Part shown: in pieces, positions 1 through 38,889 of the stretch
How positions within the stretch are numbered: position 1 is the stretch's first letter
Layout of the letters: every line of letters begins with the position of its first letter
Assembly: GCA_963717865.1 (NCBI GenBank)
Contig: CAVQXL010000004.1
Coordinates: 941,840-1,005,839 of the forward strand
Source of the DNA: Candidatus Aminicenantes bacterium
GTDB lineage: Bacteria; Acidobacteriota; Aminicenantia; Aminicenantales; Saccharicenantaceae
DNA: 64,000 nucleotides
Direction of reading: 5' to 3'
Translations under genes and position numbers: made by a program
Notes under the pieces: model-generated
The model's input: only the letters and a program-made list of their open reading frames with translations
What the model was told of the DNA's origin: nothing
The model's database searches: none

Positions 1-107
1 ATTTCCCCGGAGCTCGAGAGACTGCGCCCTCGTCTGCGTCACGGAGCAGCACTCGAAGGAGCGATATCGATAGGCTGGCCGGGGCGCTCGAGGAGGTGCT
101 CCGATGA
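1..107 (+). CDS. gcvPA: glycine dehydrogenase (decarboxylating) subunit 1, C-terminal end (partial, one frame change)
   Basis: One frame reads ..ALVCVTEQHSKE and the next reads [14 protein letters not shown]-stop (TGA 105-107), a typical GcvPA C-terminus. ATGA overlap with the gcvPB start at 104. Confidence 0.6.
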   Translation, partial: FPGARETAPSSASRSSTRRSDIDRLAGALEEVLR

Positions 108-2418: not shown

Positions 2419-4532
2419 TGGAATTCCTGCTTGGAGATCCTGACCGAAGAACTGCCCGCCTCCCACGTCCGGACCGGCCTTGGAACAGCTCGACGCGAAG
2501 TTCCGGGCCGAGCTCAGAGTCGGCCGGGATCGCCGTCCAGGAGCTCGAGACCTGCGGCACATGCCGGCGGCTCGCCGTCACGGCGGACCTCGCCGCGGGA
2601 CAGGAGGACGCCGGCGTCGTCGTCACCGGGCCGCCCAAGTCCACGGCGCTCCTCGCCGACGGGACCTATTCTCCGGCCGCCCTGGGATTCGCCAAGGCCA
2701 AGGGCATCCCGGTAGAGGCCCTCGAGATCGTGTCAAACGCCGCGCGGCGAGTATCTGGGGATACGAGGACGGTCCGGAAGGGCAAGTCCGCCGCGGAGAT
2801 CCTGACCGGCTCCATCCCGGGGATCATCGCCTCGTTATCCTTTCCCCAAGACGATGCGCTGGAGGGAAAGCCCCTTCAGGTTCTCGCGGCCGATCAAGGG
2901 CCTCCTCTGCCCTTTGTGACGGAAAGGTCCTCCCGTTCAGTATTGGAGGGGATGACGGCTTCCGATATCGACCGTCGGCCATCCCATCTTTGCCCCCGGA
3001 CCCGTCCGAGTCACGGGGATCTCCGATTACAGGGACAAGCTCGACAAAGCCCTGGTGATCGTCGATCTCGAGGAGCGGCGGAAGACGATCCTCGCCCAGA
3101 TCGAGGAGAGGCTGGCTCCCCTCAAGGCCCGGATCTACCCCGACGACGAGCTCCTCGACAGGCTGGCTTACAACGTCGAATTCCCCTTCGTCATCCTGGG
3201 CGCGTTCCCGGACCAATACCTGGAGCTTGCCCATCGAGGTCCTGGCCACGGCGATGCGCGAAGGCCAGAAGCTCTTTTCCGTCGTCAAGGACAGGAAGCA
3301 GCTGCCGGTCTTTCTCGGGAGTCGCCGATGTCCCCGGGGACCCCAAGGGGCTCATCCGCACGGGCAACGAGCGCGTCCTCAAGGCGCGGCTCGAGGACGC
3401 CCGGTTCTTCTGGGCAGCAGGACGTCCGGAAACCCCTGGCCGACAGGGCCGCCGGGCTGAAGAACGTCGTTTACCAGGAGAAGCTGGGGAGCTACGAGGA
3501 CAAGGCCCAGCGGCTGAAGAAGATCGTCGGGTACCTCTGCGATAGGACGGATGCCGCAAAGGTCAAGAAGGAGGCCGTCGAGGCCGCCGGGCTGTGCAAG
3601 GCCGACCTCCTGACCGACATGGTCCGGGAGTTCCCCTCGCTCCAGGGCAAGATGGGCGGGCTCTATGCCGAAGACCGAAGGATATCCCGCGGCCGTCCAC
3701 CAGGCCATCTACGAGCATTACCTCCCCGCGAGCCTGGAGGACGAGATCCCGTCGTCGATGACGGGCGCCCTGGTCTCCCTGGCCGACAAGATCGATTCGA
3801 TCGTCGGGGTCGTCGGCGTCGGCCTCCAGGTCTCGGGCTCGAGCGATCCGTTCGGCCTGCGCCGGAACGCCCACGGCGTCTGCGCAGATCATCATCGGGA
3901 AGAAGCTCGACCTTTCGTTCCCCCTTCTCCTCGACAAGGTCCTTTCGGTCTACGGCGACAAGCTCCTCGGGCCCAAAGCCGAGGTCAAGGCCGCATGCCT
4001 CGAGTTCTTCGCGGGGCGGCTCCGCTACATCTTCGAGAAGCAGGGCTTCCGTTACGACCTCATCAAAGCCGCCCTCGGGCCGGGCATCGACCGCATCGCG
4101 CACTCATCCCGGCGGATCAAGGCCCTCGACGGCCTCAAGTCGAGCCCCGATTTCGAGCCCTTCATCCTCATGGCCAAGCGGATCAACAACATCCTCAAGG
4201 AGGCCCCGGCCTGTCGGCTCGACCCCGAGCTCTTCGTCGAGAAAGAGGAGCGGGAGCTCCACTCGAACTTCGTCATCATCCGGGACAACGTCGAGCCGAT
4301 GATCGAGAAGGGGGATTTCGCCCGGGCCCAGAGCATCATCTTCAGGCTCCAGCCCTCGCTCAACGCCTTTTTCGACAAGGTCCTCGTGATGGCGGAGGAC
4401 AAGAAGGTCCGGCAGAACCGGCTGGCGCTCCTCCAGGCCATCCGAAAGCTCCTCCTCCAGGTCGCGGACTACTCCCGGTCGTGGTCGAGGGAGAGAGGAA
4501 CGGCAAGCCGGGAAGTTCCCGCTAGATACTGA
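2418..4532 (+). CDS. glyS: glycine--tRNA ligase beta subunit, many frame changes in this assembly
   Basis: ATG 2418 forms a TGATG overlap with glyQ. The N-terminus reads [17 protein letters not shown] once the GG run at 2433-2434 is corrected. Later segments are in ORFs 2271-3545, 3055-4302, 3665-4525 and 4170-4532 ([21 protein letters not shown]; [21 protein letters not shown]). The exact 3' end is uncertain. Confidence 0.85.
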
Positions 4533-4957
4533 ACTCGCTGTTGTTCCCGGTGCCGCCCTGGTCCCCGGGCTCGATGAACTTCTGCTCCAGGGCGATGATC
4601 TTGACCAGGGCTCCGGGATAGTTCTGGTCCTTCTTTTCCCCGTAGGCGCTGAACTGGACGCCCGACCTGGAATTTATAGCTTTTGCCGGGGTTGAACGAG
4701 GACCAGCGGACGTGTCCTCTGAGGTTGAGCGGGATGCGCTCCCCGGGGATGGAGATCTGAAGGACGACCCGGGCCTTGAACTTGAGAGGCTTCTGGGTCA
4801 GGAAACGGACGCCGCCCCGGCTGATGTCGAGGACCGGGCAGAATTCCTGCTCGAAACCCTTGGGGGGGAAGAAACGCCGTTCCCTCTGGTAGGAAATCGT
4901 CGCGCCGGGGATCTTGAAGCGCTGGCATAGACGTCTTTCAATCCCCTTGTCGGACAT
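4522..4957 (-). CDS. PilZ domain protein (one frame change near 4660-4680)
   Basis: ORF 4469-4957 has the c-di-GMP binding motifs RRLCQR and DISRGGVRF. The C-terminal part continues in another frame to TAG at 4522-4524. Confidence 0.75.
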
Positions 4958-5020
4958 GGCGAACCTCCCGTCTCATCGGAACCTGTTACCCGGAAAACAT
5001 ACATCAATCACCGGGGGCTG

Positions 5021-6115
5021 TCAAAGAGTTCTTGCCGCCCGCTCCCTGGCGACGGTCCCGTTGGACGCCTCGAGGGAGACGGACGCCCTATATCGGAGCT
5101 CCGTCCCGGAGGGGCCGGGCCGGGTGAAGGAGAACCCCAGGGCCTGGGTCCTCCTGTAGGACGGGGGCGAGACGGAAGCCAGTTTCCGCTTCTTGCCGAT
5201 GTCCCGGATGGCCTGGATGGCCAAGGAGACGGCGTCGAGGATGGAGACCTGGTTGAACTGGGGCGCGTCCTTTCGCGGGACCATGAAGGGCTTGGTCCCC
5301 CAGGGGGACGGGCCGGGGATGGGGATCTTCAACGGAGCGGGCTTGGCGGAGAGCTTCTTGCTGGTGAGGATGAGCTTGTCGCCCACGTAGAGGGACACCT
5401 CGCCCTCGACCGCACGGGGCGCGGGCGGGGCGGGACGGCCGGCGGCGGGCGCGACCGGCGGGAAGGAGATCGCCGACGACGACTCGACGTCGACCTTGAC
5501 CGTGATGCGCTTCCGGACAACCAGCTCCGCGACCTTGAGGTCCAGGTCGAAGGAGATCTCTCCGGACCTGTCGTATCCGCTCGAGAACGGCAGGCGGAGG
5601 ATGTGGAAGCCTCCCTGCCAGAGGCCTCCGGCGAGAGTGCCTCCGTCGCCCGAGACCCTGTAGTAAGCCTCGTTCAAGAGATCGAGACCGACCTCGAGCC
5701 GGTCGGGAGGGGAGGGGTCGTTCTCTCCGGCCCTTTCGAGGAGCACGAACCCCGAGGCCAAGGGATAGCTGGTTTTCCACGTTCCCCAAAATACCATGAA
5801 CTCCCGCCCCATGGCGTCGTCCAGAAAGTCGAAGGCCGGTTCGACGTCCCCGTAGGTCTCGAAGCAGGCGACGACCCGTTCGAGTTCGTCCCGGGGATCA
5901 CCGGCCTTCCGGGCGAGGAACGCGAGGAACTCCGCGGCGGTCGGCTTCTCCTCGGGGTCCAGGCCGTCGAAGCTTTCGCGCAGATAGGTCCGCGCCGCGC
6001 CGACGTCGCGCCGGGGCGGGTCGAGGAGCGCCCTGACATCGGTCTTCCAGTCGGCGGAGAGGGCCGTCGCCGAAAGGAGGCCGGCGAGGAAAAGGGCGGC
6101 GGGTCTCTTAGTCAT
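5021..6115 (-). CDS. secreted hypothetical protein
   Basis: This is the in-frame part of ORF 5021-6238. ATG at 6115 gives the signal-peptide-like MTKRPAALFLAGLLSATALSA. I recognise no family. The start overlaps the upstream TonB-family gene stop by 8 nt. Confidence 0.6.
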   Translation of the reverse strand: MTKRPAALFLAGLLSATALSADWKTDVRALLDPPRRDVGAARTYLRESFDGLDPEEKPTAAEFLAFLARKAGDPRDELERVVACFETYGDVEPAFDFLDDAMGREFMVFWGTWKTSYPLASGFVLLERAGENDPSPPDRLEVGLDLLNEAYYRVSGDGGTLAGGLWQGGFHILRLPFSSGYDRSGEISFDLDLKVAELVVRKRITVKVDVESSSAISFPPVAPAAGRPAPPAPRAVEGEVSLYVGDKLILTSKKLSAKPAPLKIPIPGPSPWGTKPFMVPRKDAPQFNQVSILDAVSLAIQAIRDIGKKRKLASVSPPSYRRTQALGFSFTRPGPSGTELRYRASVSLEASNGTVARERAARTL

Positions 6116-7059
6116 GATATGCGAACACGAATTCGGCCGGGAGGTTCGAGGCGGGGAAATCGTCGGGCAGGGGAGGCAGGGGGGCGCTCGCCCGCAGGGC
6201 GGCTTCTGCGGCGGCGTTGAAGACTTCGAGCTCCGCAAGCTCGGTCACCTCGAACGCCGAGAATGCGCCGCTTTTCTCGATGGTGACGGCGATCCGGACC
6301 TCGCTCCTTCCCGTGACATTCAGGGCGCTCGGGATGGCCCAGTTAAGCTGGACCCGGTCCATGACCTTGGCCGCCCAAGGGGAGATGTCGTAACCCGGGG
6401 ACTGGAACACGGCGCTCGCCCGCTGTCCGACTTCCTCCCGTCCCCCCGCCGGCCCCGGAACCGCGGCGTCCGCGGTCACGGGAGGTCGCGAGCCCGGGCA
6501 GGACATACCCTCGGAACGACCGGCCGCTCGGGACACCGCCCTCGAAGCCCATGGGGGCGTCCTGGACGTGGTCTGGAATGGCTAGAAGGTTGATCCGGAG
6601 CCTTCCGTCCCCTTCGTCCGCGTACCGCGAACCCAGGGCGAGACTGCCGCTCAGGGATTCCCCGGAAGAAGGCGGGGTCCCGGGCGCGTTCTTCATGAGG
6701 TTATCGGGAGCGAGCCCGGACCTCGGGCCCGCTTCATCCGGATTCGAAGACTCGGGGGATGCCCCCGGCGCCGGGGCCGGGCGGGCGACCTGCCGGCGCG
6801 TCCCGAGCTCGAACGGTCCGGGCGCGGGGGAATTCCGTATGTAATCCTCTATGCGCTCCGGGACGACCATCCGGACCGGGGGAGCGAGCCGGACGTTCCG
6901 GACCTCCCTGCCGAAGGTCAGGATCTTGATCGTCCCCCTGGCGTGATACAAGCCGTAAATAAGGAGGGCGTGAAGGGCCAGCGAAATGGCGAGGCTCGCG
7001 GCCCGCCTTTTATAGAAAGGCTTCCGTTCCGGCTCTTCCGGTAAGAATCCGTCTCTCAA
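6108..7059 (-). CDS. energy transducer TonB-family protein (one frame change between 6343 and 6536)
   Basis: It has an N-terminal membrane anchor (AASLAISLALHALLIYGL), a Pro-rich linker and a TonB C-terminal-like domain (VQLNWAIP..GRSEVRIAVTIEKSG..). The two parts are in ORFs 6343-7059 and 6108-6536. Confidence 0.7.
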
Positions 7060-7181: not shown

Positions 7182-9383
7182 CTAGAGGCCCCGATGGCCG
7201 CCCGGGACTTCAGGACGCGGATAAGCTGCGATGAAGATGAAGCAGAATGCGTTCATGAGGAACAGGGCGTCGAAGAGGGGTAGTATCCCGGCCAGCGGGA
7301 TGAGCAGGGCGGAGGCCGAGAGGGCCCCGAGGAAGGACCCCAGGAGGTCTGCCCCATAGGCCAGGCCGGTCCTTCGGGGACCGGCGGGGACGGCCCGTGC
7401 GGAAGCAACGAATAGTCGCCCCCCCAGCACCCCGAGGGCGAGGAGCAGGATATAGAAAAGGGCCTCCGGGGCCCGGTTCGCCAGGGAGATCCTGAACGCC
7501 GCGACGATGATCAGGAAGCCGGCCAAAGGCGCCAGGAGGCTCGGGGTTCCCCCGGGCTTTCCGGGGCGCCGGGGCCACGCCCCGAGGAACAAGCCGCCCA
7601 TGAACGCGGAGAGAAGAAGCGAGAGCTTTCCATAGACGTATCCGAAAAAGGACTGGAAAGCGATGAATGCGGCCAGCTCGGCGACGATGGTCGTGAAGCC
7701 CATGGTCCAGGCGGCCACAAGGGGAAGCGCGGCCCGCCGTTTCTTCCGGAGCGCGAGGAGCGAAAGAAAAAAGACATAGACGAAAAGGGGAACCCCGAGG
7801 AGGGCCGGGACCGGGATCCGCTCAAAAGATCGGAGCATCCCGGATTCGAAGCCCCGGAATTGACTGCTCCAAAGCACAGAATAGAAGTAATAGGCCGCCG
7901 GAGCGAGGTCCCGATTGAGGCGTACCGGTCCCGCGCCGATGCTTTCCGCGAGCCGTTCCATCCGCAGGGGGTTCAGGCGCGCGGAAAGAAGCCCGGCGTT
8001 GATGGAGAGGAGCGGCAGTCCGAGCTCTTCGATCCGCCGCTCGAGGATCTTCGGATCGAGGGTGAGGGGGGCCGAAGACGCCAGGAATACGTTCGCGTTG
8101 CCGGGGACCACCCGGACCTCGGGAAAGACGGACCGAAGCGTCGCATAAAGGGACGACAGGAAACGCCGGAGGTCGGCCCCCAAAGAGTCCTCGGAGGAAG
8201 GGACTACGAAGGAGAAGACCCCGGCGGACGCGAGCCGCGAGCGGGCCAGGACGAAGAATTCTTTCGTGTAGAACCGGTTGATCTGGGCGGTCGCGGGCTC
8301 GGGCAGGTTCAGGATGATGACGTCGTATCGCTCTTTCCCTCCTCGAAGGAACCCGACCCCGTCCCCCCTGTGGACGTTGACCCTCGGGTCCCGAAGGGCG
8401 GTCCGGTCCTTCTCCGGAAGCATGGCCTCCGCCATGCGGATGATCCCCGGGTCGAGCTCCACGGAGTCCGCCGAGACGTTCGGATATTTCAGGACCTCGC
8501 CGATCCCGCCGCCGACGCCCCCGCCGATGAGCAGGACCTTTCGGGCTCCCGGGTCCTGGAGCATCGCGAAGTGGACGGGCGTTTCGGCCGCGGCCGGGTC
8601 CGGGGTCGTAAGGACGGGAATTCCGCTGGCATAGAGCGACAGCTGATCGCCGGTCCTGACCGCTTGGAGCTTCGCATAGGGCGTATCCCGGCTCCCGACG
8701 AGCTCGAAGGGCTTCCACCATATCTTTTGGGAGGACAAGTCGCCGGCGAAGAATGCCGCGAGGAGGGCCATGACCGCCAGGGGGGCCAGGGGACGCTTCC
8801 TCCGCCCGAAGATCAGGAAGGCGCCCGTGGCCGCGATCCCGGCCGCGAGAGCGGCGCCCTGCCAATTCGTGACGAGGGGAATGAGGCCCAGCGAAACGGT
8901 CAGGCCGGCGGCAACGGCCCCGAGGGACTCGAAAGCGTACACGCGGGGCACGTCGGCGCCGGGCAGTCTGGCGATGAGGGCGAAGAGGACACCAAGGGGG
9001 AAGCTGGAGACGAAGCCTATCGCCGCGGCGGCGGCAAGGGCAGGCGCCATGCCGGTCAATTCTCCGGGCAGGGTTCCCATAGCGAACCGGGAGAACCTCA
9101 GGGCGACGAGGCCCATCGGGAAGAGGAGGGCGACGGCATAAAAAAGCCGTTCGATCCGCTCTTTCGAGCCGGCGAAACGGGGGCCGGCGAGGCTCCCAAG
9201 GCCCCCCCAGAACAGCCAGCTGGCCAGGACGATGCCGTAAACCAGCTCGTTCCCCGAAAAATGGGCGGAGAACTCCCGGAGGAGATAGATCTGGAAGGCC
9301 GTTGCGGTGAAACCGAGGAGGATCGCGGGCGCGTGGGCCGTCAGGCCCAGATCCCGGGGATTGGGGCGCCGCAGAAACCGCAT
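7182..9383 (-). CDS. polytopic membrane protein with central spermidine synthase-like (SAM methyltransferase-fold) domain
   Basis: Intact frame. Several N-terminal TM helices are followed by VLLIGGGVGGGIGEVLKY..VELDPGII..YDVIILNLPEPATAQINRFYT (SpeE-like), then about six C-terminal TM helices. ATG 9383 is chosen because the upstream part of ORF 7182-9647 overlaps the radical SAM gene. Confidence 0.75.
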   Translation of the reverse strand: MRFLRRPNPRDLGLTAHAPAILLGFTATAFQIYLLREFSAHFSGNELVYGIVLASWLFWGGLGSLAGPRFAGSKERIERLFYAVALLFPMGLVALRFSRFAMGTLPGELTGMAPALAAAAAIGFVSSFPLGVLFALIARLPGADVPRVYAFESLGAVAAGLTVSLGLIPLVTNWQGAALAAGIAATGAFLIFGRRKRPLAPLAVMALLAAFFAGDLSSQKIWWKPFELVGSRDTPYAKLQAVRTGDQLSLYASGIPVLTTPDPAAAETPVHFAMLQDPGARKVLLIGGGVGGGIGEVLKYPNVSADSVELDPGIIRMAEAMLPEKDRTALRDPRVNVHRGDGVGFLRGGKERYDVIILNLPEPATAQINRFYTKEFFVLARSRLASAGVFSFVVPSSEDSLGADLRRFLSSLYATLRSVFPEVRVVPGNANVFLASSAPLTLDPKILERRIEELGLPLLSINAGLLSARLNPLRMERLAESIGAGPVRLNRDLAPAAYYFYSVLWSSQFRGFESGMLRSFERIPVPALLGVPLFVYVFFLSLLALRKKRRAALPLVAAWTMGFTTIVAELAAFIAFQSFFGYVYGKLSLLLSAFMGGLFLGAWPRRPGKPGGTPSLLAPLAGFLIIVAAFRISLANRAPEALFYILLLALGVLGGRLFVASARAVPAGPRRTGLAYGADLLGSFLGALSASALLIPLAGILPLFDALFLMNAFCFIFIAAYPRPEVPGGHRGL

Positions 9384-10462
9384 TTCCCGCTCCTGATGTC
9401 GATCTTCCGGACGTCGTATCCCGACCTGGCGATGACCACGCGGCGGCAGTCGGGACAGCTCGTGCTTTCGGCCGCATGACCGGGGACGTTGCCGACATAG
9501 ACGTAGCGCAGGCCCTCTTCGAGCGCGATGCCGCGGGACCGCTCCAGCGTCGAGACCGGCGTCGGCGGGAGGTTCTTGACCAGGTACATGGGCTGGAAAC
9601 GGGAGAAGTGCAGGGGGACGTCCGGCCCGGCCTCCGCTTTCAGCCACCGGCTCATTTCCCGGATCTCCCCGGGAGAGTCGTTGAGAGTGGGGATGACAAG
9701 ATAGACGACCTCGAGCCAGACCTTGCTTCCGGCCACGATCCGGATCGCCTCGAGGACCGCCTCGAGATCTCCCCGGACGTATTCGGCGTAGAAGTCCTTG
9801 GAAAACGCCTTGAGGTCGATCTTGACCGCGTCCACGACTTCGAGAAGGTCCCGCAGAGGCTCCGGCTTGATGTGCCCGCCGGTGACGACGAGGTTCCGGA
9901 TCCGCTTCTTCCGGACGGCGACGGCCGCGTCGGCCATGTACTCGAAGAACACGACCGGTTCCGTGTAGGTGTAGGCGACCGAGGGACAGCCGTATCGTTC
10001 GGCCGACGCGGCGACGGCTTCGGGGGGGAGGTCGAAGTGCTCGACCTGTTCCGGGCGGACCTGGGAGATCTGCCAGTTCTGACAGAACTTGCAGTTCACG
10101 TTACAGCCCGCCGCGGCCAGGGAGAGGGCGTTCGTCCCGGGGAGGACGTGGAAGAAGGGTTTTTTCTCGACGGGGTCGACGTTGAGGCTGCAGGCCTTGC
10201 CGTAGACGAGGGTGTAATAGGTCCCGCCCTGATTCTCGCGGACGCCGCAATAGCCGCGCTCCTTGTCCCCCAGCCGGCATAGTCTCGGGCAGAGACTGCA
10301 TTCGATCTCTCGGTCGGGGAGCTTCCTGTAATAGCGGGCTTCGACATGGGAAAGCCCGGACGGCGCGGCAAAGGCTGCCATCTCCGAGCATAACGACGGC
10401 AGGCAGGTCCCCAGGACGAGGCCCGCGCCCGCGCCCTCCCGGATGAAACGTCGCCGGTCCAT
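9341..10462 (-). CDS. radical SAM enzyme, AmmeMemoRadiSam (AmrS)-like, with N-terminal twin-arginine signal
   Basis: The N-terminus MDRRRFIREGAGAGLVLG...AFAAPS matches a Tat motif plus h-region plus AxA site. It also has an N-terminal Cys cluster (CSLCPRLCRL..GYCGVR), the radical SAM box CNVNCKFCQNW, and a C-terminal CPDC..CGFCG ribbon. Intact frame. Confidence 0.8.
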   Translation of the reverse strand: MDRRRFIREGAGAGLVLGTCLPSLCSEMAAFAAPSGLSHVEARYYRKLPDREIECSLCPRLCRLGDKERGYCGVRENQGGTYYTLVYGKACSLNVDPVEKKPFFHVLPGTNALSLAAAGCNVNCKFCQNWQISQVRPEQVEHFDLPPEAVAASAERYGCPSVAYTYTEPVVFFEYMADAAVAVRKKRIRNLVVTGGHIKPEPLRDLLEVVDAVKIDLKAFSKDFYAEYVRGDLEAVLEAIRIVAGSKVWLEVVYLVIPTLNDSPGEIREMSRWLKAEAGPDVPLHFSRFQPMYLVKNLPPTPVSTLERSRGIALEEGLRYVYVGNVPGHAAESTSCPDCRRVVIARSGYDVRKIDIRSGKCGFCGAPIPGIWA

Positions 10463-10463
10463 G

Positions 10464-11363
10464 TCAGACCTCGGCCTCGACGATCGAGATCCGGCCCGGG
10501 TCGACGGTGCCGAGCCCCAGCTTTTCGGCGGTGGCCAGGTAGGACGGCTCCCGTTGTTCTTCGGCGAGGGAGGGGAGGCCCTTCTTCGCCCGCAGGCCTT
10601 CGATGAGCCGCCAGCCGACCGCGTCCGTCGCCACGGGGTCCGTCCCGAAGACGAGGGCGCCGGCCCTTTCCGCCCAGGACGGGTGGTAGGAAGGGCCGCG
10701 GTGATATTGAACGGTCAAGGCATCCAGGATGGTCAGCCGGTGCCTCCCTCTGACGGGCGGGGCATCGAAGACATCGGCGACGTATGGATCGCAGCGGCCG
10801 TCGTGGTATTTGTTCGGATTGTGGATGGCGCCGAAATAATTCTTCATCCCGGCGGTTACGCCCGCCATCCCGTGGTCCTTGAGGACGGCCAGGCTGATCG
10901 AGGCCGTGACGTAATCTTCCTGGATGGAAGAGAAGAGGCTCCCGATGTCGCGGTGGACGACGAGCTCGCGGCCGTAGCCGACCCCGTCGGTGTCCGTGCC
11001 GAATACGCGGGGCCCGGCGCCTCCGGAGGAGAGCTTATAGCCCGCGGACCTGAGCTCGTGGTTCGTGCGGTCCCAGACGATGACGTTCCCCGGCTTGACG
11101 GTCTTTTCGGCGAGCCAGGAAGCCAGGGGTAGCGAGACGTCCGGACGGGTGCTGAGGGCCTTTCCGCCGATGGCGTTGATCTTGATGCCGACCACATCGC
11201 CGGGACCGAACAGCCGGCGCAGTCCGGCGTCCGGATCGCTCTCTCCGGTCAGGATGCGGATCCCCGTTTCATACATGCGCCGGATCGTCCCCGGAGGGGC
11301 GTCCCCCGGGGGGAGCCCCTTCGCCCTGATCACCACGATCCGTGACGCGTCCATCCCAACCAT
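10464..11363 (-). CDS. DUF362 domain protein
   Basis: The sequence resembles the DUF362 family (VGIKINAIGG.., VLKDHGMAGVTAGMKNYFG, DALTVQY). The stop is 1 nt from the radical SAM start. The track ORF begins at TTG 11390; in-frame ATG 11363 is preferred. Confidence 0.7.
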   Translation of the reverse strand: MVGMDASRIVVIRAKGLPPGDAPPGTIRRMYETGIRILTGESDPDAGLRRLFGPGDVVGIKINAIGGKALSTRPDVSLPLASWLAEKTVKPGNVIVWDRTNHELRSAGYKLSSGGAGPRVFGTDTDGVGYGRELVVHRDIGSLFSSIQEDYVTASISLAVLKDHGMAGVTAGMKNYFGAIHNPNKYHDGRCDPYVADVFDAPPVRGRHRLTILDALTVQYHRGPSYHPSWAERAGALVFGTDPVATDAVGWRLIEGLRAKKGLPSLAEEQREPSYLATAEKLGLGTVDPGRISIVEAEV

Positions 11364-11404
11364 GATGGCTCTTATACCGGGGGCTGTCAACTCCGCGCGC
11401 CCGC

Positions 11405-11433
11405 TTGAAATGGGGGTGCGGAGCCGCTATATT
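11405..11433 (+). promoter_or_regulatory. sigma70-like promoter (TTGAAA-17-TATATT)
   Basis: The -35 is 11405-11410 and the -10 is 11428-11433. A GGGAGG Shine-Dalgarno lies just before ATG 11466. Confidence 0.45.
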
Positions 11434-11465
11434 GGGAGGGCGGTTCCGATGGTCCGGGAGGCATC

Positions 11466-12389
11466 ATGAAAATATCGAGCAGAGCGTTTGGTCCGGCGGC
11501 GATGTTGGTCGCGGTCCTATTCTCCGCCGCTCGGGGGGCGGAAGGGAGGGCGCAGAGGGCGGGCGACCCGTCGCTCCTGGCCCTGATCCCGACGATCGAC
11601 GGCTGGACGGCGACCGAAAAGCCGCGGAGCTTCTTCCCCGACACCTTGTACGAATACATCGACGGGGCCGCCGAAAGCTACATCGGCTACGATTTCGAGG
11701 AGCTGGCCGTCGCCGAGTTCTCCCAGGCAGGAACGACGGCGTCCCTGACCCTCGAGATCTACGACATGGGAGACACCCTCGACGCGTTCGGCATCTATAG
11801 CGCCGAGCGTTTCCCGGACAACAAGGCCGTCGATATCGGGACCCACGGCTACATCGAGGGCGAGGTCCTCAACTTCGTCGCGGGGCCCAACTACGTGAAG
11901 CTCCTCTGCTTCAACGGCGGGGAGTCGACCGCCTCGATCCTCGAAGTCTTCGCCCGAAAAGTCGCCGCGGCGGCGGGGGCCAAGGGCGCCATCCCGGCCC
12001 CGTTCTCGGTGTTCCCGAAGGACGGGCTCGTCCCGAACAGCGAGAAGTACATCCGGCGGAACGTCATGGGATTCGATTTTCTGAGCGACGGGTACTTGGT
12101 CTCCTATAAAGCGGACGGGGCCGAGTTCGAGGGCTTCGTCATCGAGCCCGACAAGGCGCAGGACCCGGCGGCGTTGTTGAAGCGCCTCCTGGATTTCTTC
12201 ACCCGGGACGGACAGGCCGTGGAGCCTTCGGCCGCCGGCTATCGCGTCAGGAACAAGTACGCCCAGAACCTGTTCCTCGGGATCGCCGGGGACCGCCTTT
12301 GCGGGATCAACAGGGTTCCGGACGGGTCCGAACGGGCGGGCTCGGCATTGTTCGAGCGTCTGGCCGAAGCCGTGAAAAAAGGCGCCTGA
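11466..12389 (+). CDS. secreted hypothetical protein
   Basis: Intact 307-aa ORF with a signal peptide (MKISSRAFGPAAMLVAVLFSAARGAEG). I cannot assign a family with confidence. Confidence 0.6.
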   Translation: MKISSRAFGPAAMLVAVLFSAARGAEGRAQRAGDPSLLALIPTIDGWTATEKPRSFFPDTLYEYIDGAAESYIGYDFEELAVAEFSQAGTTASLTLEIYDMGDTLDAFGIYSAERFPDNKAVDIGTHGYIEGEVLNFVAGPNYVKLLCFNGGESTASILEVFARKVAAAAGAKGAIPAPFSVFPKDGLVPNSEKYIRRNVMGFDFLSDGYLVSYKADGAEFEGFVIEPDKAQDPAALLKRLLDFFTRDGQAVEPSAAGYRVRNKYAQNLFLGIAGDRLCGINRVPDGSERAGSALFERLAEAVKKGA

Positions 12390-12392
12390 ATC

Positions 12393-12734
12393 CTACAAGG
12401 GATTCTGGCGGAGGTGGTCGCGGAGCCTTTGGAATTCCTTTTCCAGCCCCTGAAGGTTCGCCTGGGCCTTTGCGGCACTGCCGTTCCTCCCGGCGAGCTC
12501 GATGGCCGACGCGCGATCCCGAAGCAGGGGCAGGCTCAGGTTGGCCGAGGACCCCTTGATCGCGTGACCGAGCTGTTCGACGGCCTTGAGGTCGCCCTGG
12601 GCGAGAGCCCCCCGGAGCCCGGCGACCCTCGTCGCGAGATCGGCCGTATAGATGTCGAGGAGTTCCTTGAGGAAATCCCTGTCGTCTCCCACCCGGGCCA
12701 GGGCGTCCGCAACGTCGATCGGAATTCGTTCCAT
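12393..12734 (-). CDS. Hpt (histidine phosphotransfer) domain protein
   Basis: MERIPIDVADAL.. contains the Hpt signature HAIKGSSANLSL. Start chosen at ATG 12734 inside ORF 12393-12851. Confidence 0.8.
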   Translation of the reverse strand: MERIPIDVADALARVGDDRDFLKELLDIYTADLATRVAGLRGALAQGDLKAVEQLGHAIKGSSANLSLPLLRDRASAIELAGRNGSAAKAQANLQGLEKEFQRLRDHLRQNPL

Positions 12735-12750
12735 GTTTTCCTCCGTCCTC

Positions 12751-13656
12751 TCAAGCCCCCGCGACGACGCGGTTCCTTCCCAGGCTCTTGCCCTTGTAAA
12801 GGGCGGCATCGCTCGCCTGGACCAGAGTCTCGGCCGTGGCGTCCGGGGCAAGCTCCGACGAGGCGCAGCCCAGCGTCACCGTGACCAGGACGTCGCCGGC
12901 CGGCGTCCTTACCTTCCTCCCGGAGATGGCCTTCCGGAGCCGCTCCCCGATGGCCGCCGCGTCGGCGAGGCCGCATCCCGGAAGGACGACGAGCATCTCA
13001 TCTCCGCCGTAGCGGCCCACCCTGTCGTAGGGACGGACGCCCCGCTCCAGCCGCTTGGCGATCTCTATGAGGGCGACGTCACCGGCGAGGTGGCCGTGGG
13101 CGTCGTTGATCTTCTTGAAGTTGTCGATGTCGATCATGATCGCGCTCACGGGGTGGCTCTCCCTCCGCCCCCGGGCCAGGTCCTCCTCGAGGAACAGGAA
13201 GGCGTTCGCCCTGTTCCAGAGGCTCGTCAAATTGTCCCGGCTGGCCATGTCCTTGAGCTTCCGGTTGGATTCGAGAAGCTTGTCCTCGAGCTCGACGAGG
13301 CGCCGGCCCGTCTGGATCCGCGCCCGGAGCTCCAGGAGGTTCACCGGCTTGGCCATGTAGTCGTCGGCGCCGGCTTCGAGGCCTTCGACGATGTCCTGCC
13401 TCCGGTCCCTGGAGGTGAGCATGATGATGTAGACGTACTTCGGCCCGCCGTCCTGACGGACGAACCGGCAGATCTCGAGGCCGTTGATCCCCGGCATCAT
13501 CCAGTCGAGGATGGCCAGGCGGACTTCCCCTCCCCGGAGGATCGCCAGGGCTTCATCGCCGTTCCCGGCGAGGGCGCAGTCGTAGTCCCAGCCCGAGATG
13601 CTCTTCTCCAGCAATCTCCGGGAGACCGGGTCGTCCTCGGCGATCAGGATCTTCAT
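12751..13656 (-). CDS. response regulator with GGDEF diguanylate cyclase domain (REC-GGDEF)
   Basis: The receiver has the acceptor Asp in AILDWMMPG. The GGDEF domain has the variant active-site motif GGDEM (12994-13008) and an RxxD I-site (RPYD) five residues upstream. Intact frame with a 4-nt overlap with the kinase gene. Confidence 0.9.
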   Translation of the reverse strand: MKILIAEDDPVSRRLLEKSISGWDYDCALAGNGDEALAILRGGEVRLAILDWMMPGINGLEICRFVRQDGGPKYVYIIMLTSRDRRQDIVEGLEAGADDYMAKPVNLLELRARIQTGRRLVELEDKLLESNRKLKDMASRDNLTSLWNRANAFLFLEEDLARGRRESHPVSAIMIDIDNFKKINDAHGHLAGDVALIEIAKRLERGVRPYDRVGRYGGDEMLVVLPGCGLADAAAIGERLRKAISGRKVRTPAGDVLVTVTLGCASSELAPDATAETLVQASDAALYKGKSLGRNRVVAGA

Positions 13657-16088
13657 TCGGGGCCTCTCTTCACGGTTCCCCGGGCGACGCGGTCCAGTGT
13701 CCGGAAAAGCTCTTCGGGGTTCAGGGGCTTGGAAACGTAGTCGTCCATCCCGGCCTCGAGGCAGCGCTTCCGGTCCTCCTTGAGGGCATGGGCGGTCAGG
13801 GCGATGACGGGCATGTGGCGGCGGGTCCGGCGCTCCCGGGCCCGGATCCGGGCCGTGGCTTCGAACCCGTCGAGGACCGGCATCTGGACGTCCATCAGGA
13901 CGGCATCGAACTCCTCCTTGTCCAGGGCGTCCAGGACCTCGTTCCCGTTACCGGCCGTCCGGACGATGTGTCCGCGCTTCTCGAGGATGTGGACGGCTAC
14001 TTTCTGGTTGATGGGATTGTCCTCCGCGAGGAGGATCCTCAGAGGCGGGCCGGCGGCGACGGGGACCGGCCGGGTGATGATCTCGGGAGCGTCCCCGGCC
14101 GCGAGCCGCGAGCCTTGGGCGAGAAGGATGGCGTCGAGGAGCTCCGACTGCTTGACGGGTTTCGTGAGGTAGGCCTGGACCCCCAGGCCCCGGCAGCGAT
14201 CGACGTCGCCGATGCGGTCCGAGGAGGTCAGGATCATGATCTTGAGCCCCTTCAAGGCCGGGTCCTTACGGACGCGGTCGATGAGGTCGAAGCCGTCCAT
14301 GCCGGGCATGTTGGCGTCGATGAGGGCGAGGGCGAAGTCCCGGCCGCGGCGGCCCTTCCGCTTGAGGAGCCGCAGGGCTTCCGTCCCGCTCGCCACGTCC
14401 ACGGGCCGCATCTGCCAGTTCGTCAGGATCTCCTTCAGGATCCGCCGGTTCGTGGCGTTGTCGTCGACGATGAGGACCGGCAGGTCTCGAACCTCCTCGG
14501 GCTCGGCCGGCGTCGCCCTCCGGGAGACTGTCCGCTGGAGTCCGAGCCGGGCCGTGAAATGGAAGCGGCTTCCGGCCCCCGGTTCGCTCTCGACCCAGAT
14601 GCGGCCCCCCATGAGCTCGACGAGGCGGTAGGAGATCGTCAGGCCCAGGCCCGTACCGCCGTAACGCCGGGTCGTTGACCCGTCGGCCTGGACGAAGGCC
14701 TGAAAGATGGCTTTCTGCTTGTCCCGGGGGATGCCGATCCCCGTGTCCGAGACCGTGAAGTGGAGGAGGACGTGGTTCCTGTCGGCGGATTCCGCGGTCG
14801 CGTCGATGACGACCTCGCCGCGCTCGGTGAACTTGATCGCGTTGCTCGTTAGATTGATGAGGACCTGACGGAGGCGGCGGATGTCGCCGACGAGGCCGTC
14901 CGGGACGTCGGGGGAGATGCGGCAGGCGAGCTCCAGTCCCTTCCGGTGGGCTTCCAGGCCCAGGAAAGAGGCGGTCTCGGCGACGGCGTCGCGCAGGCCG
15001 AAGCGGATCGGTTCGAGGTCCATCATCCGGGCCTCGATCTTGGAGAAATCGAGGATATCGTTGAGCAGGACGAGGAGCGAATCCGCCGACGCCTTGATGG
15101 CGTTCAGGTAATCCCGCTGGATGGGGGAAAGGGGCGTGTCCAGGGCGAGGTCGGTCATCCCGATGATACCGTTCATCGGCGTGCGGATCTCGTGGCTCAT
15201 ATTGGCCAGGAACTCGGACTTGGCGGCGTTGGCGGCCTGGGCCTCGAGACGGGAGGCCTTGAGCTCGGCCTCGGCCTGTTTCTGCAGGGAGATGTTGGTG
15301 ACCGCGGAGAGGACTCCCATGAACTTGCCCGCTTCGAACAGCGATCGGGCGCTCACCAGGACCGGGACAGGCGTTCCCTCCTTGGACCGGAGCACGGTCT
15401 CGTAGATCTCGAGCGTGCTTTTCGAGCGCCGCGAGCGGGTCTTCTTCCGGATGCGGGCGAGCTCTTCCGGCGAGATGAAATCCTTCGGGTCGCGGCCGGT
15501 CAGCTCCTCGGCCCGGAACCCTAGGAGCCGCTCAAGGGCGGGATTGACGAAGACCACCCGGCCTCGGGCGTCCTCGAGGATGATGCCCTCGGCCAATCCA
15601 TTGACGATGTTCTCGTTGAATTCCTTGAGGGACTCGAGCTCCTTCTGGAAGCGCGCGATCTCCCGCTCCTTTTTCCGGCGCTCCGAGATGTCCCTGTAGA
15701 TGCCGACGGCGCCCTCGATCCGGCCGTTCCAGAGGATGGGAGAGGCCGAGATGCTGATATCCACGGGCGTCCCGTCCTTCCGATAGCGAACCGACTCCGC
15801 ATCGATGAGCGGGCCGTTCCTGCGGCTAACGGTCCGGGATAGGGCCAGCGCTTCTTTGTACTTCGGCCCGCCGACGAGCCTGTCGATGTTCTTTCCGACC
15901 GCTTCCCGGCGCCCGTAGCCGAAGATCCTCCGGGCGCCGTCGCTCCATTCGACGATGTTGTTCTTGCGGTCGAGGGCGACGATGCCGTCGGCGAGGCTTT
16001 GGACGACCGCTTTCCAGTATAGGGAGCGTTCGTTGTTCTTTTCGGCTTCTCTAAGGAAGGTGCGGAAGGCATGGGGGCTCGTTTTCAT
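13653..16088 (-). CDS. hybrid sensor histidine kinase (PAS-PAS-HisKA-HATPase-REC-REC)
   Basis: Intact 811-aa ORF with H-box SHEIRTPMNGIIG, ATPase motif GGTGLGLTIS, and two receiver domains (IDANMPGMDG; MDVQMPVLDG). Confidence 0.9.
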   Translation of the reverse strand: MKTSPHAFRTFLREAEKNNERSLYWKAVVQSLADGIVALDRKNNIVEWSDGARRIFGYGRREAVGKNIDRLVGGPKYKEALALSRTVSRRNGPLIDAESVRYRKDGTPVDISISASPILWNGRIEGAVGIYRDISERRKKEREIARFQKELESLKEFNENIVNGLAEGIILEDARGRVVFVNPALERLLGFRAEELTGRDPKDFISPEELARIRKKTRSRRSKSTLEIYETVLRSKEGTPVPVLVSARSLFEAGKFMGVLSAVTNISLQKQAEAELKASRLEAQAANAAKSEFLANMSHEIRTPMNGIIGMTDLALDTPLSPIQRDYLNAIKASADSLLVLLNDILDFSKIEARMMDLEPIRFGLRDAVAETASFLGLEAHRKGLELACRISPDVPDGLVGDIRRLRQVLINLTSNAIKFTERGEVVIDATAESADRNHVLLHFTVSDTGIGIPRDKQKAIFQAFVQADGSTTRRYGGTGLGLTISYRLVELMGGRIWVESEPGAGSRFHFTARLGLQRTVSRRATPAEPEEVRDLPVLIVDDNATNRRILKEILTNWQMRPVDVASGTEALRLLKRKGRRGRDFALALIDANMPGMDGFDLIDRVRKDPALKGLKIMILTSSDRIGDVDRCRGLGVQAYLTKPVKQSELLDAILLAQGSRLAAGDAPEIITRPVPVAAGPPLRILLAEDNPINQKVAVHILEKRGHIVRTAGNGNEVLDALDKEEFDAVLMDVQMPVLDGFEATARIRARERRTRRHMPVIALTAHALKEDRKRCLEAGMDDYVSKPLNPEELFRTLDRVARGTVKRGPE

Positions 16089-38487: not shown

Positions 38488-38889
38488 GTGTTGAAGAGCG
38501 TGCCGTCCAGGGCCTTGGCTTCGGACCCGGATCGGACATCAATGACGCCCATATTCTCGGGCGGGGGTATATTCGTCGGGGGCCGGCGTCTCCCGGACCT
38601 CGACCCAGGTCGTCGCCGATTTCGTCATCGGGTCGACCGGGATGGTCCGGAGGTATTTCTCGTCGACCAGGGTCTGGAGAGAAGCCGGGTACTTGCCCTT
38701 GTCCTGGAAATACTGGTCGATGAGCTTGCGGAACTGGAACAGGTCTTCCTTGAGGACGGCTTCCCGGGCCCGCTTGGCCGCGCTCTGGTACTGGGGGAGG
38801 CCCAGTCCGACCAGGATCCCGATGAGGGTGAAGACGATGATCATCTCGATGAGCGTGAACCCGGAGCCCTTCGCTTTTCGTCGTGTCAT
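38481..38889 (-). CDS. GspG-like type II secretion pseudopilin (one frame change in G/C run 38559-38567)
   Basis: The prepilin motif is KGSGFTLIEMIIVFTLIGIL. The corrected C-terminus ..VIDVRSGSEAKALDGTLFNTW parallels its neighbour and overlaps the next start codon. Confidence 0.7.

Follow-up and report, generated by a model that had tools for sequence, protein, structure and literature searches.

What does a radical SAM enzyme do behind a signal for export? Radical SAM enzymes are held to operate only intracellularly; to our knowledge none functions extracytoplasmically, where no supply of SAM or low-potential reductants is known. The window analysed here, a stretch of 64,000 nucleotides from a Candidatus Aminicenantes bacterium, encodes a radical SAM enzyme (rSAM) with a twin-arginine signal, in the following setting:

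10464-11363, minus strand: DUF362 (PF04015) protein, 299 aa from ATG, the operon's first gene
9341-10462, minus strand: AmmeMemoRadiSam-type radical SAM enzyme, 373 aa (TIGR04337, PF04055)
10367-10462, minus strand: its twin-arginine signal peptide, residues 1-32, from RR conservation and low pLDDT
10082-10105, minus strand: its radical SAM cluster motif C120-x3-C124-x2-C127 (CNVNCKFC), read from the sequence, at least 90% conserved over 80 loci
7182-9383, minus strand: SpeE-membrane protein, 733 aa from ATG; the enclosing ORF extends to 9647
8718-9335, minus strand: its N-terminal 7-TM bundle, residues 17-222 (AF2); RRKR precedes TM7 at the bundle's end
7821-8705, minus strand: its SpeE-fold domain, residues 227-521 (Foldseek), with non-canonical active-site residues
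7227-7811, minus strand: its C-terminal 7-TM bundle, residues 525-719 (AF2), opening with TM8, then RKKRR
11364-11465, no strand: 102-nt intergenic region separating the operon from the divergent DUF6599 gene
11466-12389, plus strand: DUF6599 secreted protein, 307 aa (PF20244, E 9e-47), divergently transcribed

The earlier note on this DNA described a compact, intact three-gene operon with a 1-nt gap followed by a 43-nt overlap, and both coordinates and junctions were verified in the sequence. The three genes are intact and translationally coupled: the DUF362/rSAM junction reads TGAcATG, with a gap of 1 nt, and the rSAM stop lies beyond the SpeE-like start by an overlap of 43 nt, with SD-like GAGG and AGGAG motifs before the rSAM and SpeE-like starts, respectively. 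An alternative DUF362 start is possible at TTG 11390. Public gene calls on an ENA contig of 172,684 bp that encodes an identical SpeE-like protein match the gene lengths and spacing of the window. The intergenic region holds a promoter-like TTGAAA-17-TATATT on the plus strand (11405-11433) and a TTGACA at 11390 on the minus strand, both of them consensus matches only.

The profiles proposed for checking these genes (TIGR04337, PF04055, PF04015 and PF01564) all match where expected. The rSAM scores 373.1 bits against TIGR04337 (cutoff 220), with the model match beginning at residue 42, and also matches PF04055. Its proposed AmmeMemoRadiSam-type layout is borne out by this score and by the presence of all three cysteine clusters; the N-terminal (C55-x2-C58-x3-C62...C72) and C-terminal cysteines (C336-x2-C339...C361-x2-C364) are, like the central motif, at least 90% conserved over the 80 loci. 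The AF2 model (pLDDT 87) has the PFL-activating enzyme as its nearest solved fold (TMt ~0.8). In a neighbor-joining tree, the Tat-bearing and membrane-anchored forms separate from the plain forms of ~335 aa, and signal-less rSAM-AMMECR1-Memo fusions also stand apart from them.

The N-terminus of the enzyme, MDRRRFIREGAGAGLVLGTCLPSLCSEMAAFA-AP, agrees with the twin-arginine consensus: an n-region MDRRRFIRE is followed by the h-region GAGAGLVLGTCLPSLC and the c-region SEMAAFA, which ends in A-F-A. The near-consensus Tat signal with an AxA site noticed earlier is thus present in the window copy. A lack of RR conservation in orthologs had been named beforehand as a possible refutation; instead, 113 of the 120 closest homologs carry a strict RRx[FLIVMA][LIVMFA] and five more RRxFC, R3 and R4 are invariant in an alignment of 58 orthologs and at least 90% conserved across 80 loci from more than 10 phyla, and nearly all of these loci have a basic pair and an h-region ahead of the rSAM core. 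They were sampled from Aminicenantes, Bryobacterales, Holophagae, Zixibacteria, KSB1, Calditrichota, Krumholzibacteriota, Latescibacterota, Brocadiales, Phycisphaerae and Thermodesulfobacteriota. The signal segment measures about 32-40 residues. In the AF2 model, residues 1-39 have a pLDDT of 32-54, against values above 90 beyond, and the predicted twin-arginine segment is outside the folded enzyme. Conservation of the A-x-A site is lacking among the closest homologs examined, so that the signal may stay on as an anchor, and charged residues often follow the h-region in orthologs. A second protein of the window, an amidohydrolase (47007-48752), likewise has a twin-arginine-type N-terminus.

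That the rSAM is flanked by a DUF362 protein and a 733-aa protein with a SpeE-like domain between TM bundles, as first read, is agreed on by Pfam and AF2. The latter protein consists of seven TM helices, a SpeE-fold domain and seven further TM helices (AF2 pLDDT 87, pTM 0.88). The N-terminal helices (17-41, 46-69, 74-96, 112-138, 145-170, 173-192, 199-213) are homologous to the TM part of PRK03612; the C-terminal ones (525-545, 549-580, 583-602, 613-635, 640-664, 674-698, 700-719) weakly resemble the N-terminal ones (hhalign E 0.007), and neither half matched a transporter family in Pfam. RRKR-TM7 and TM8-RKKRR bracket the SpeE-like domain, and K+R in short loops amounts to 3.2 on the side of this domain versus 22.0 on the opposite side. 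On account of this charge distribution the domain is predicted to face the periplasm, although the topology has not been measured. PF01564 matches residues 267-393 (86 bits), and the best Foldseek match is 1uir (TMt 0.75). Unlike in aminopropyltransferases, however, the acidic residues are absent: the window protein and most of 43 orthologs have GGGVG in place of GGG[DE]G and N-L-P-E-P in place of D-x-x-D-P; the dcSAM-discriminating acid is missing in every ortholog examined and the catalytic Asp in most. The SpeE equivalog models remain far under their cutoffs (83.8 vs 249.55; 134.4 vs 472). G287-G289, G292, E309 and D341 are invariant.

The DUF362 protein (PF04015, E 1.1e-17) has no signal peptide in the window, and an RRxF Tat motif of its own is found at 0 of 19 Aminicenantes loci versus 26 of 28 others. 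In 43 related loci its gene immediately precedes that of the rSAM and shares its strand. Its conserved residues are K61, N63, W97-D98-R99, K162-D163-H164, K174-N175 and N182-P183-N184-K185-Y186-H187; no cysteine reaches 90% conservation among related loci. The co-occurrence outside the source genome that was to be checked is found: ORF clustering of 79 loci puts DUF362 in 50 and the SpeE-membrane protein in 47, and wherever the flank reaches at least 6 kb (32 loci) one or both accompany the rSAM (30 by ORF clustering, L012 and L038 by tblastn). The association is kept across phyla though order and orientation vary. As it recurs in this way, and as R3 and R4 are invariant in the 58 orthologs, neither the signal nor the gene association is due to chance.

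Which partners complete the module? In 20 related loci the cluster includes a Memo-AMMECR1 fusion with a Sec-type signal, which passes TIGR04336 and TIGR04335; an N-terminal signal or anchor segment is present in 112 of its 120 closest homologs. The absence of Memo and AMMECR1 from the window, noted at the outset, was upheld by tblastn over the 64 kb with 22 ORFs of one cluster (c5) from related loci, mostly Memo-AMMECR1 fusions, and both are missing within 10 kb at all Aminicenantes loci examined. The named Memo-AMMECR1 matches are few and none is from Aminicenantes, but so few do not demonstrate a genome-wide absence. DUF6599 occurs in 19 loci, none of them among the 20 with Memo-AMMECR1; the window copy and almost all orthologs listed begin with a signal peptide, and the gene is syntenic in Aminicenantes and adjoins that of the SpeE-like protein in an unrelated MAG (L036). 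The divergent secreted gene, suspected of belonging to the module, thus appears to do so, and judged by sequence it is probably an Aminicenantes-specific member. A module that replaces AMMECR1 and Memo is ruled out by the 20 loci with the exported fusion in the same cluster; these instead argue for an exported version of the AmmeMemoRadiSam system.

Membrane-anchored relatives bear on the supply of electrons. P0151 and P0153 combine a single N-terminal TM helix, an FMN_bind domain with the flavinylation motif D-x-V-S-G-A-T and the rSAM, without a TM helix between the latter two; in P0128, P0136 and P0148, NapH-like Fer4_5 and/or DsbD_2 are additionally fused. NapH-like proteins and extracytosolic FMN_bind form a modular transmembrane electron path (PMC8238504). 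At L085, the one such locus fully read for pairing with the SpeE-membrane protein, the FMN_bind-rSAM gene is followed directly by an overlapping full-length homolog of the window copy (tblastn q10-707, E 3e-23). The glycine-rich nucleotide loop of this distant homolog is degenerate (SATVSR), and therefore SAM binding by the SpeE-like domain is not universal. No recognisable electron-transfer module is found in the window cluster.

We consider it probable, if far from certain, that the operon is the Aminicenantes variant of a widespread extracytoplasmic AmmeMemoRadiSam system, whose rSAM is a full TIGR04337 member with a conserved Tat signal and whose neighbours themselves bear export or periplasm-facing features and recur across more than 10 phyla. 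We found no description of such a version in the literature, nothing experimental supports it, and the presence of tatA/tatC in the genome is unexamined. The earlier proposal of an uncharacterised, envelope-associated SAM-dependent module is thereby supported, with the amendment that it is an exported version of the AmmeMemoRadiSam system and not a replacement for AMMECR1/Memo. Of the three refutations named beforehand none came true: the RR conservation and the co-occurrence spoke for the idea, whereas the possible pairing with AMMECR1/Memo genes elsewhere in the genome spoke neither for nor against it. The rSAM would acquire its Fe-S clusters in the cytoplasm and be exported folded; the Tat system exports folded, cofactor-loaded proteins and also complexes with a signal on one subunit only (PMC10924467). 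By inference, the window DUF362 would probably leave the cell complexed with the rSAM as a hitchhiking passenger, and the 14-TM protein, with which the exported enzyme is most constantly associated, would display its SpeE-fold domain periplasmically. Radical SAM chemistry of the module may modify a substrate exposed at the envelope, for example a lipid, isoprenoid or envelope protein, whose identity is unknown. In other phyla, the Sec-exported fusion would provide the remaining two activities, its place being taken by secreted DUF6599 in Aminicenantes. Anchored relatives could draw electrons by way of flavinylated FMN_bind and of DsbD-like or NapH-like membrane modules that are fused to them or lie next to them; in the window cluster DUF362 is a mere guess for the reductant, having no conserved cysteine. 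For the delivery or holding of SAM outside, the best candidate, likewise only a guess, is the SpeE-membrane protein, in which adenosyl-binding residues are kept.

It is possible, though unlikely, that catalysis precedes export, with the precursor using cytoplasmic SAM and reductant, for instance on DUF362, on itself or on a small molecule bound to it, and the finished complex leaving without any SAM chemistry outside. The problem of SAM and electron supply would disappear, the window DUF362 is signal-less and translationally coupled to the rSAM, and Tat carries complexes that are already folded and loaded with cofactor, in some of which a single partner bears the signal (PMC10924467). A precedent is the rSAM-matured effector HxsA, found in the periplasmic fraction, whose rSAM is not described as exported (PMC13128918). 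However, an enzyme acting solely before export needs no exit, and the rSAM itself is signal-bearing in every sampled phylum; relatives have flavinylated FMN_bind and transmembrane electron modules as fusion partners on the outer side, implying that electrons are needed outside; the Memo-AMMECR1 partners have Sec-type signals and therefore fold and act only after export; and there are triple fusions with a single N-terminal signal or anchor, in P0152 a signal-like segment followed by Memo, AMMECR1 and rSAM, in P0138 a TM helix followed by rSAM, Memo and AMMECR1.

Somewhat less credible still is the absence of export altogether, in which the RR segment is an uncleaved tether or maturation-chaperone site that keeps the rSAM at the cytoplasmic membrane face beside a cytoplasm-facing SpeE-like domain. 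Such chemistry would stay near its cofactors, the topology is only predicted, and the unconserved A-x-A and the charged residues past the h-region would fit. Yet RR before an N-terminal helix puts the next domain outside by the positive-inside rule, RRKR and RKKRR lie opposite the SpeE-like domain, four other module proteins have ordinary export signals, and the FMN_bind fusions bear a flavinylation motif typical of extracytosolic domains (PMC8238504). Hardly tenable is a chance assembly in which the 733-aa protein is a membrane-bound spermidine synthase, the rSAM is a standard cytoplasmic AmmeMemoRadiSam enzyme whose start was mis-called, and DUF362 has nothing to do with either. Automatic annotation does read 'spermidine synthase' and 'pyruvate formate lyase activating enzyme', and the PF01564 match exceeds its cutoff, but the rSAM start is conserved (homologs are likewise 373 aa long and RR is invariant), the stops and starts overlap, and the association holds through changes of order and orientation across phyla; together with the locus counts, the low equivalog scores and the missing SpeE active-site acids, including the dcSAM-discriminating acid in all orthologs examined, this contradicts it. 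In the exported AmmeMemoRadiSam system that we favour, the conserved export signal and the envelope-facing partners point to extracytoplasmic radical chemistry in many little-known bacterial phyla.

What do the three minus-strand genes encode, and how reliable are their calls? The earlier note had described a packed run of intact genes for a DUF362 protein, an AmmeMemoRadiSam-type radical SAM enzyme (rSAM) and a membrane protein with a spermidine synthase (SpeE)-like domain. Open reading frames, junctions and family profiles confirm the three genes at their coordinates, and the family assignments stand as well, with profile matches to PF04015, TIGR04337 and PF01564 all above cutoff.

Genes of the operon and the divergent neighbour
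10464-11363, minus strand: DUF362 protein (PF04015, E 1e-17)
9341-10462, minus strand: radical SAM enzyme (TIGR04337, 373.1 bits)
7182-9383, minus strand: SpeE-membrane protein, 733 aa (PF01564 over residues 267-393)
11466-12389, plus strand: DUF6599 gene, divergent from the operon (E 9e-47)

A single nucleotide separates the DUF362 and rSAM genes (TGAcATG), and the rSAM and SpeE-like genes overlap by 43 nt, with Shine-Dalgarno-like sequences before the second (GAGG) and third (AGGAG) starts in operon order. Gene lengths and spacing are the same in the public gene calls of a 172,684-bp ENA contig (ERZ25039502 contig_149094), which encodes an identical SpeE-like protein. The window has a G+C content of 65-66% and its closest protein relatives come from Aminicenantes and Acidobacteriota MAGs; promoter and terminator scans gave consensus matches only, to which we attach no weight. 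The DUF362 protein scores 65.1 bits against PF04015 (cutoff 24) over model positions 1-199 of 200, a family placed in one clan with DUF2088, the N-terminal domain of LarA (PMC11770544). No solved structure matching DUF362 or DUF6599 by sequence was found, and the public names of the module proteins are only 'AmmeMemoRadiSam system radical SAM enzyme', 'pyruvate formate lyase activating enzyme' or 'spermidine synthase'.

The surroundings of the operon offer several separate observations. In a near-identical ENA contig (L081:14859-22155 and L082:12689-17931 in our numbering of related loci; window 1-4600 and about 37000-43000), many housekeeping genes are called as short fragments (glyQ 126 aa, gcvP 80 and 199 aa, gcvT 70 aa, lpxB 106 aa, PNPase 175 aa, kdtA 123 aa); within the window, same-strand ORFs overlap in different frames at 3055-4532, but kdtA remains a full 424-aa ORF at 42418-43692. 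The pattern resembles the indel errors of long-read assembly more than true pseudogenes; the three operon genes are intact. Just upstream of the operon and on the same strand (12393-16088, minus) lie genes for an Hpt protein, a response regulator-GGDEF protein and a PAS hybrid histidine kinase, which show synteny with the operon in several loci of Aminicenantes (ORF clusters c14 and c6) and may be its regulators. Directly downstream of the SpeE-like gene (4469-7059, minus) follow genes for a TonB_2-domain protein that has an N-terminal TM helix, a family-less 364-aa protein and a PilZ protein. Only close Aminicenantes relatives share this envelope-related set (c56, c36, c37), whose link to the module is unclear. 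Unrelated to the module is a fusion of a PIF1-like helicase and a WYL domain (49732-51315, plus), which may be tied to a mobile element or to defence.

The match of rSAM to TIGR04337, 'AmmeMemoRadiSam system radical SAM enzyme' (cutoff 220 bits), covers residues 42-372 and includes Cys residues conserved in at least 90% of 80 loci: C120/C124/C127 (CX3CX2C), C55/C58/C62/C72 and C336/C339/C361/C364. Ahead of this core, the protein begins with D-R-R-R-F-I-R-E, followed by the h-region GAGAGLVLGTCLPSLC and by A-F-A, which fits a twin-arginine (Tat) motif of the [ST]-R-R-x-F-L-K-like kind. Among the 120 closest homologs (66-92% identity, nearly all of about 373 aa), 113 have a strict RRx[FLIVMA][LIVMFA] and five more RRxFC; one close homolog, P0049 (337 aa), has no N-terminal extension. 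Scanning one genome per species yielded 80 rSAM loci, from Aminicenantes, Bryobacterales, Holophagae, Vicinamibacteria, Thermoanaerobaculales, Zixibacteria, KSB1, Calditrichota, Krumholzibacteriota, Latescibacterota, Brocadiales/Scalindua, Phycisphaerae and Thermodesulfobacteriota; Caldithrix and Bryobacteraceae relatives are among the sources. In nearly all of these loci a basic pair and an h-region ([ST]-R-R-x-F-[LI]-K type) precede the core in frame, even where the tblastn alignment begins only at residue 40; conservation of R3 and R4 reaches at least 90% over the 80 loci, and both are invariant in an alignment of 58 sequences. In the AlphaFold model (overall pLDDT 87), the fold begins near residue 40, and residues 1-39 have a pLDDT of 32-54. 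The RR motif on which the earlier note had rested its claim of export is thus conserved in orthologs and lies outside the fold. A mis-called start is ruled out by the 373-aa homologs with invariant RR and by the agreeing public gene calls.

The A-F-A of the window copy is not conserved in homologs, and cleavage of the signal peptide is therefore uncertain. Such signals are present in about 30 (27 by a scripted rule) of the 150 best representatives of clusters at 50% identity. In a neighbor-joining tree the signal-bearing forms group with membrane-anchored forms, which have an N-terminal TM helix or are fused to membrane modules, and the plain enzymes of about 335 aa and the signal-less rSAM-AMMECR1-Memo fusions stand apart from both. 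With its three Fe-S-type Cys clusters, rSAM fits the kind of cargo that needs folding or a cofactor before export, and folded, cofactor-requiring cargo is an established type of Tat substrate (PMC10924467). Judged on sequence alone, the twin-arginine signal of rSAM is real and old. As to its finer features, the h-region of the Aminicenantes enzymes ends in a conserved G-L-P-S-L-C (residues 20-25 of the 9341-10462 product) and Cys-rich h-regions (CLGC, CAFC) are found in Planctomycetota; none of these is a canonical lipobox. A second Tat-type N-terminus in the window, MAEISRRDFMRTAGLAAAGGCGL, belongs to an amidohydrolase (PF07969; 47007-48752, plus), a sign that the organism gives other proteins Tat-type signals as well.

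The grouping that the earlier note took for a module recurs well beyond the source genome and across many phyla. ORF clustering places DUF362 in 50 of 79 loci (in 43 it lies directly upstream of rSAM and shares its strand) and the SpeE-membrane protein in 47 of the 79. Where at least 6 kb could be followed on both sides (n = 32), 30 loci have one or both partners, and the remaining two, L012 and L038, have partner matches by tblastn. DUF362 has an RRxF Tat motif of its own in 26 of 28 loci outside Aminicenantes, compared with none of 19 within. No Cys of DUF362 reaches 90% conservation over the 80 loci, which leaves a role as an Fe-S ferredoxin unsupported.

In 20 of the 80 loci, rSAM adjoins a fusion of Memo (PF01875) and AMMECR1 (PF01871) of about 510 aa, which exceeds the TIGR04336 and TIGR04335 cutoffs and has a hydrophobic signal or a lipoprotein-like N-terminus, as do 112 of its 120 best homologs; P0152 and P0138 are triple fusions of rSAM, Memo and AMMECR1. 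DUF6599, with a signal peptide in the window copy and in almost all listed orthologs, occurs in 19 loci, namely those of Aminicenantes and the unrelated L036, in which the SpeE-like gene directly adjoins it, and it shares no locus with Memo-AMMECR1. The earlier note had described AMMECR1 and Memo as absent from the window, and we likewise find no match to them in its 64 kb, nor within 10 kb in any Aminicenantes locus; among the best 120 of 7864 profile matches of the fusion, few are named and none of those is from Aminicenantes.

Two lineages show their own gene orders. Six loci of Scalindua/Brocadiales, one of them labelled Thermodesulfobacteriota (L041, L045, L048, L049, L054, L065), have a Tat-type rSAM without DUF362, and all except L045 carry two DUF1538 membrane proteins, a P-II-like protein and a CBS protein between rSAM and a convergent SpeE-membrane gene; in anammox-type Planctomycetota, Tat and Sec signals may lead to the anammoxosome rather than the periplasm. 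In Zixibacteria and related unclassified MAGs (L029, L035, L039, L066, and also L038, with a weak SpeE match), rSAM and the SpeE-membrane protein are followed by a periplasmic S41 (Ctp-type) peptidase with a PDZ domain, which may mean that the substrate is a protein or that a component of the module is processed.

The AlphaFold model of the 733-aa protein (pLDDT 87, pTM 0.88) has seven TM helices, a SpeE fold (227-521) that is complete, including the N-terminal beta-hairpin domain, and seven further TM helices. SpeE structures are its best Foldseek matches (1uir, TMt 0.75), and PF01564 gives 86 bits against a cutoff of 22.9. In the short loops, Lys and Arg average 22.0 on one side and 3.2 on the other (56 orthologs), and the SpeE-like domain is bracketed by RRKR-TM7 and TM8-RKKRR; on these grounds the positive-inside rule predicts that the domain faces the periplasm. 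The adenosyl-binding G287-G289, G292, E309 and D341 are invariant. In SpeE, selectivity for decarboxylated SAM comes from the acid of GGG[DE]G, and the Asp of D-[ST]-x-D-P is catalytic. Here the motifs read GGGVG and N-L-P-E-P; the acid is absent from all 43 orthologs, which have Val, Ala, Met or Phe instead, and most of them have Asn or another residue at the position of the catalytic Asp, the first Asp of D-x-x-D-P being Asn in the window. The SpeE equivalog models stay far below cutoff (TIGR00417 83.8 vs 249.55; PRK00811 103.2 vs 260; PRK03612 134.4 vs 472). Since these residues are replaced and the equivalog scores are so low, the protein, as far as its sequence can tell, is not a canonical aminopropyltransferase, and an ordinary spermidine synthase is ruled out on the same grounds. 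The earlier note's SpeE-like SAM-binding domain between TM bundles thus holds for the 7+7 layout, the fold and the adenosyl positions, but the acids of an aminopropyltransferase are missing.

What the membrane part does is less tractable. The fused MFS/spermidine synthase model NF037959 reaches 33.5 bits (cutoff 40) and only over the SpeE part, no Pfam family matches the TM halves at E up to 10, the similarity between the two halves is weak (hhalign E 0.007, probability 5%), and the PDB fold search is dominated by the SpeE domain. An MFS identity was rejected for want of a Pfam match and of clear internal similarity, and with the PDB search so dominated a transporter role remains a guess. A motif, Y-x-x-[ED]-x-L-G-[AS]-x-x-x-x-L...L-I-P-L, is found both in TM5 (residues 149-170) and in TM13 (676-697), with an invariant acid in or near each (E152, D679), suggesting an internal repeat and a functional polar site within the membrane.

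Some membrane-anchored rSAM relatives are joined to modules that point to electron supply on the outer side.

Domain composition of rSAM relatives from protein clusters
P0128: DsbD_2, FMN_bind, NapH-like Fer4_5 and rSAM
P0136, P0148: TM, FMN_bind, Fer4_5 and rSAM
P0133, P0135: DsbD_2 and rSAM
P0125, P0131: signal, beta-propeller or CBM-like domain and rSAM
P0151, P0153: single N-terminal TM, FMN_bind and rSAM, with no TM in between

All FMN_bind domains of these relatives keep the flavinylation motif D-x-[IV]-[ST]-G-A-T, and the genes of P0151 and P0153 are preceded and overlapped by one for a DsbD_2+Fer4_5 membrane protein. NapH-like proteins and extracytosolic FMN_bind domains form modular transmembrane electron paths to extracytosolic redox enzymes; the survey describing them (Meheust et al. 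2021, PMC8238504) contains no occurrence of 'radical SAM', PF04055, AMMECR1 or DUF362. With DsbD_2, NapH-like Fer4_5 or flavinylated FMN_bind fused to rSAM (P0128, P0133, P0135, P0136, P0148, P0151, P0153) or adjacent to it (fused or adjacent also in L083-L087), a radical SAM enzyme is, judging from domain composition, connected to a chain of extracytosolic electron transfer, a combination that the flavinylation survey does not mention. In L085, the gene that follows and overlaps the rSAM gene encodes a homolog of the window's SpeE-membrane protein over its full length (721 aa, E 3e-23), and this pairing suggests that exported rSAM and the SpeE-membrane protein are the constant core. The G-loop of this homolog is degenerate, which weakens a universal SAM-binding role of the SpeE-like domain. 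Since tblastn found no DsbD_2/Fer4_5 or FMN_bind module in any of the 80 Tat-type loci, the window cluster included, these modules and DUF362 may be alternatives.

How does the module compare with known systems? AmmeMemoRadiSam consists of the families TIGR04337 (radical SAM enzyme), TIGR04335 (protein A/AMMECR1) and TIGR04336 (protein B/Memo). The window rSAM resembles the first in profile score and in its three Cys clusters, and 20 related loci have true protein A and protein B domains above cutoffs. The canonical enzymes of our sample, however, are of about 335 aa without a signal or are signal-less rSAM-AMMECR1-Memo fusions, whereas the module adds a Tat signal on rSAM, a Sec-type signal on Memo-AMMECR1 and two constant partners, DUF362 and the SpeE-membrane protein; in the window cluster, Memo-AMMECR1 is absent and DUF6599 present. 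The function of the canonical system is unknown, with RNA base modification as one prediction (PMC2034487).

PflA and the other glycyl-radical activases share the partial TIM-barrel core (3cb8, 3c8f and 8fo0 are the closest solved folds, TMt about 0.8), and the closest solved sequence (E 1.7e-7) is in this group too. Unlike them, the window rSAM has extra N- and C-terminal Cys4 modules, and it scores far below the activase cutoffs (TIGR02493 50.1 vs 231.75; TIGR02494 40.4 vs 174.35); no glycyl radical enzyme is among the genes annotated in the cluster, and the glycyl-radical activases are cytoplasmic. With SpeE, including the PRK03612 type, whose N-terminal TM bundle aligns with that of the window protein, the SpeE-membrane protein shares the fold, the G-loop, E309 and D341; it differs in the second 7-TM bundle after the domain, the predicted periplasmic location of the domain and the lack of an MFS Pfam match. 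An Fe-S protein with an RR signal beside a signal-less DUF362 recalls Tat hitchhiker complexes (hydrogenase small and large subunits, DmsAB), as does the Tat signal that DUF362 itself has in other lineages; but a complex has not been demonstrated, and the cargo would be a radical SAM enzyme, of which we know no exported example. For the canonical system, Burroughs et al. in 2019 reportedly predicted modification of nucleotide bases or isoprenoids. The flavinylated NapH-/DsbD-like systems (PMC8238504) resemble the rSAM relatives with such modules, but not the window cluster, which has none.

The best-supported reading of these data, in which export is inferred, makes the module a variant of the AmmeMemoRadiSam system that works outside the cytoplasm. 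The Fe-S enzyme rSAM and DUF362, possibly a cofactor protein, would be exported by Tat and Memo-AMMECR1 by Sec, a division that fits established Tat biology, as Fe-S and cofactor proteins use Tat. The signal-less, translationally coupled DUF362 of Aminicenantes may, by inference, hitchhike with rSAM, and the substrate would presumably be exposed in the envelope; RNA base modification as predicted (PMC2034487) cannot apply to an exported variant. A further step, possible but tentative, would place the whole pathway outside the cytoplasm. Tat-exported rSAM would then receive electrons from dedicated periplasmic or transmembrane carriers, which would be FMN_bind, NapH-like or DsbD-like in relatives and possibly DUF362 in the window cluster. 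The 14-TM protein, with its periplasmic SpeE-like domain, would carry SAM or another adenosyl compound across the membrane or hold it there.

Because a radical SAM enzyme depends on SAM and on an electron donor of low potential, these enzymes are, to our knowledge, regarded as strictly cytoplasmic, and two rival explanations require no catalysis outside. rSAM might complete its catalysis before export, which we consider unlikely, or it might stay tethered at the cytoplasmic face, to which we give only a slim chance; cleavage of the signal is unsettled, and relatives couple the enzyme to extracytosolic electron carriers. That these are ordinary genes, neighbours by coincidence, we regard as very improbable, and the partners recur in loci of many phyla. 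An extracytoplasmic AmmeMemoRadiSam variant thus remains the reading we prefer. We found no description in the literature of an exported AmmeMemoRadiSam or of any Tat-exported radical SAM enzyme, although a mention of secreted versions in Burroughs et al. 2019 is not excluded.

What, then, would such a system mean? A large, multi-phylum rSAM clade and its partners carry export signals, implying either an undescribed delivery of SAM and electrons outside the cell or an unrecognised mode of action such as pre-loading or a single turnover. Conservation of Memo and AMMECR1 extends from archaea to humans, and human disease has been linked to their genes, but what the two proteins do biochemically is unknown. 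For an exported version of the entire system, tRNA and rRNA are out of reach, and the shared chemistry is therefore more likely directed at a small molecule, a lipid or a peptide. Fusions and neighbours supply testable candidates, with FMN_bind, NapH-like and DsbD-like proteins for the electron supply and the SpeE-membrane protein as the handler of cofactor or substrate. If the entire pathway does operate outside the cytoplasm, it would be the first extracytoplasmic SAM-dependent radical chemistry, and Memo and AMMECR1 would be shown to act on an envelope-located substrate other than nucleic acid.
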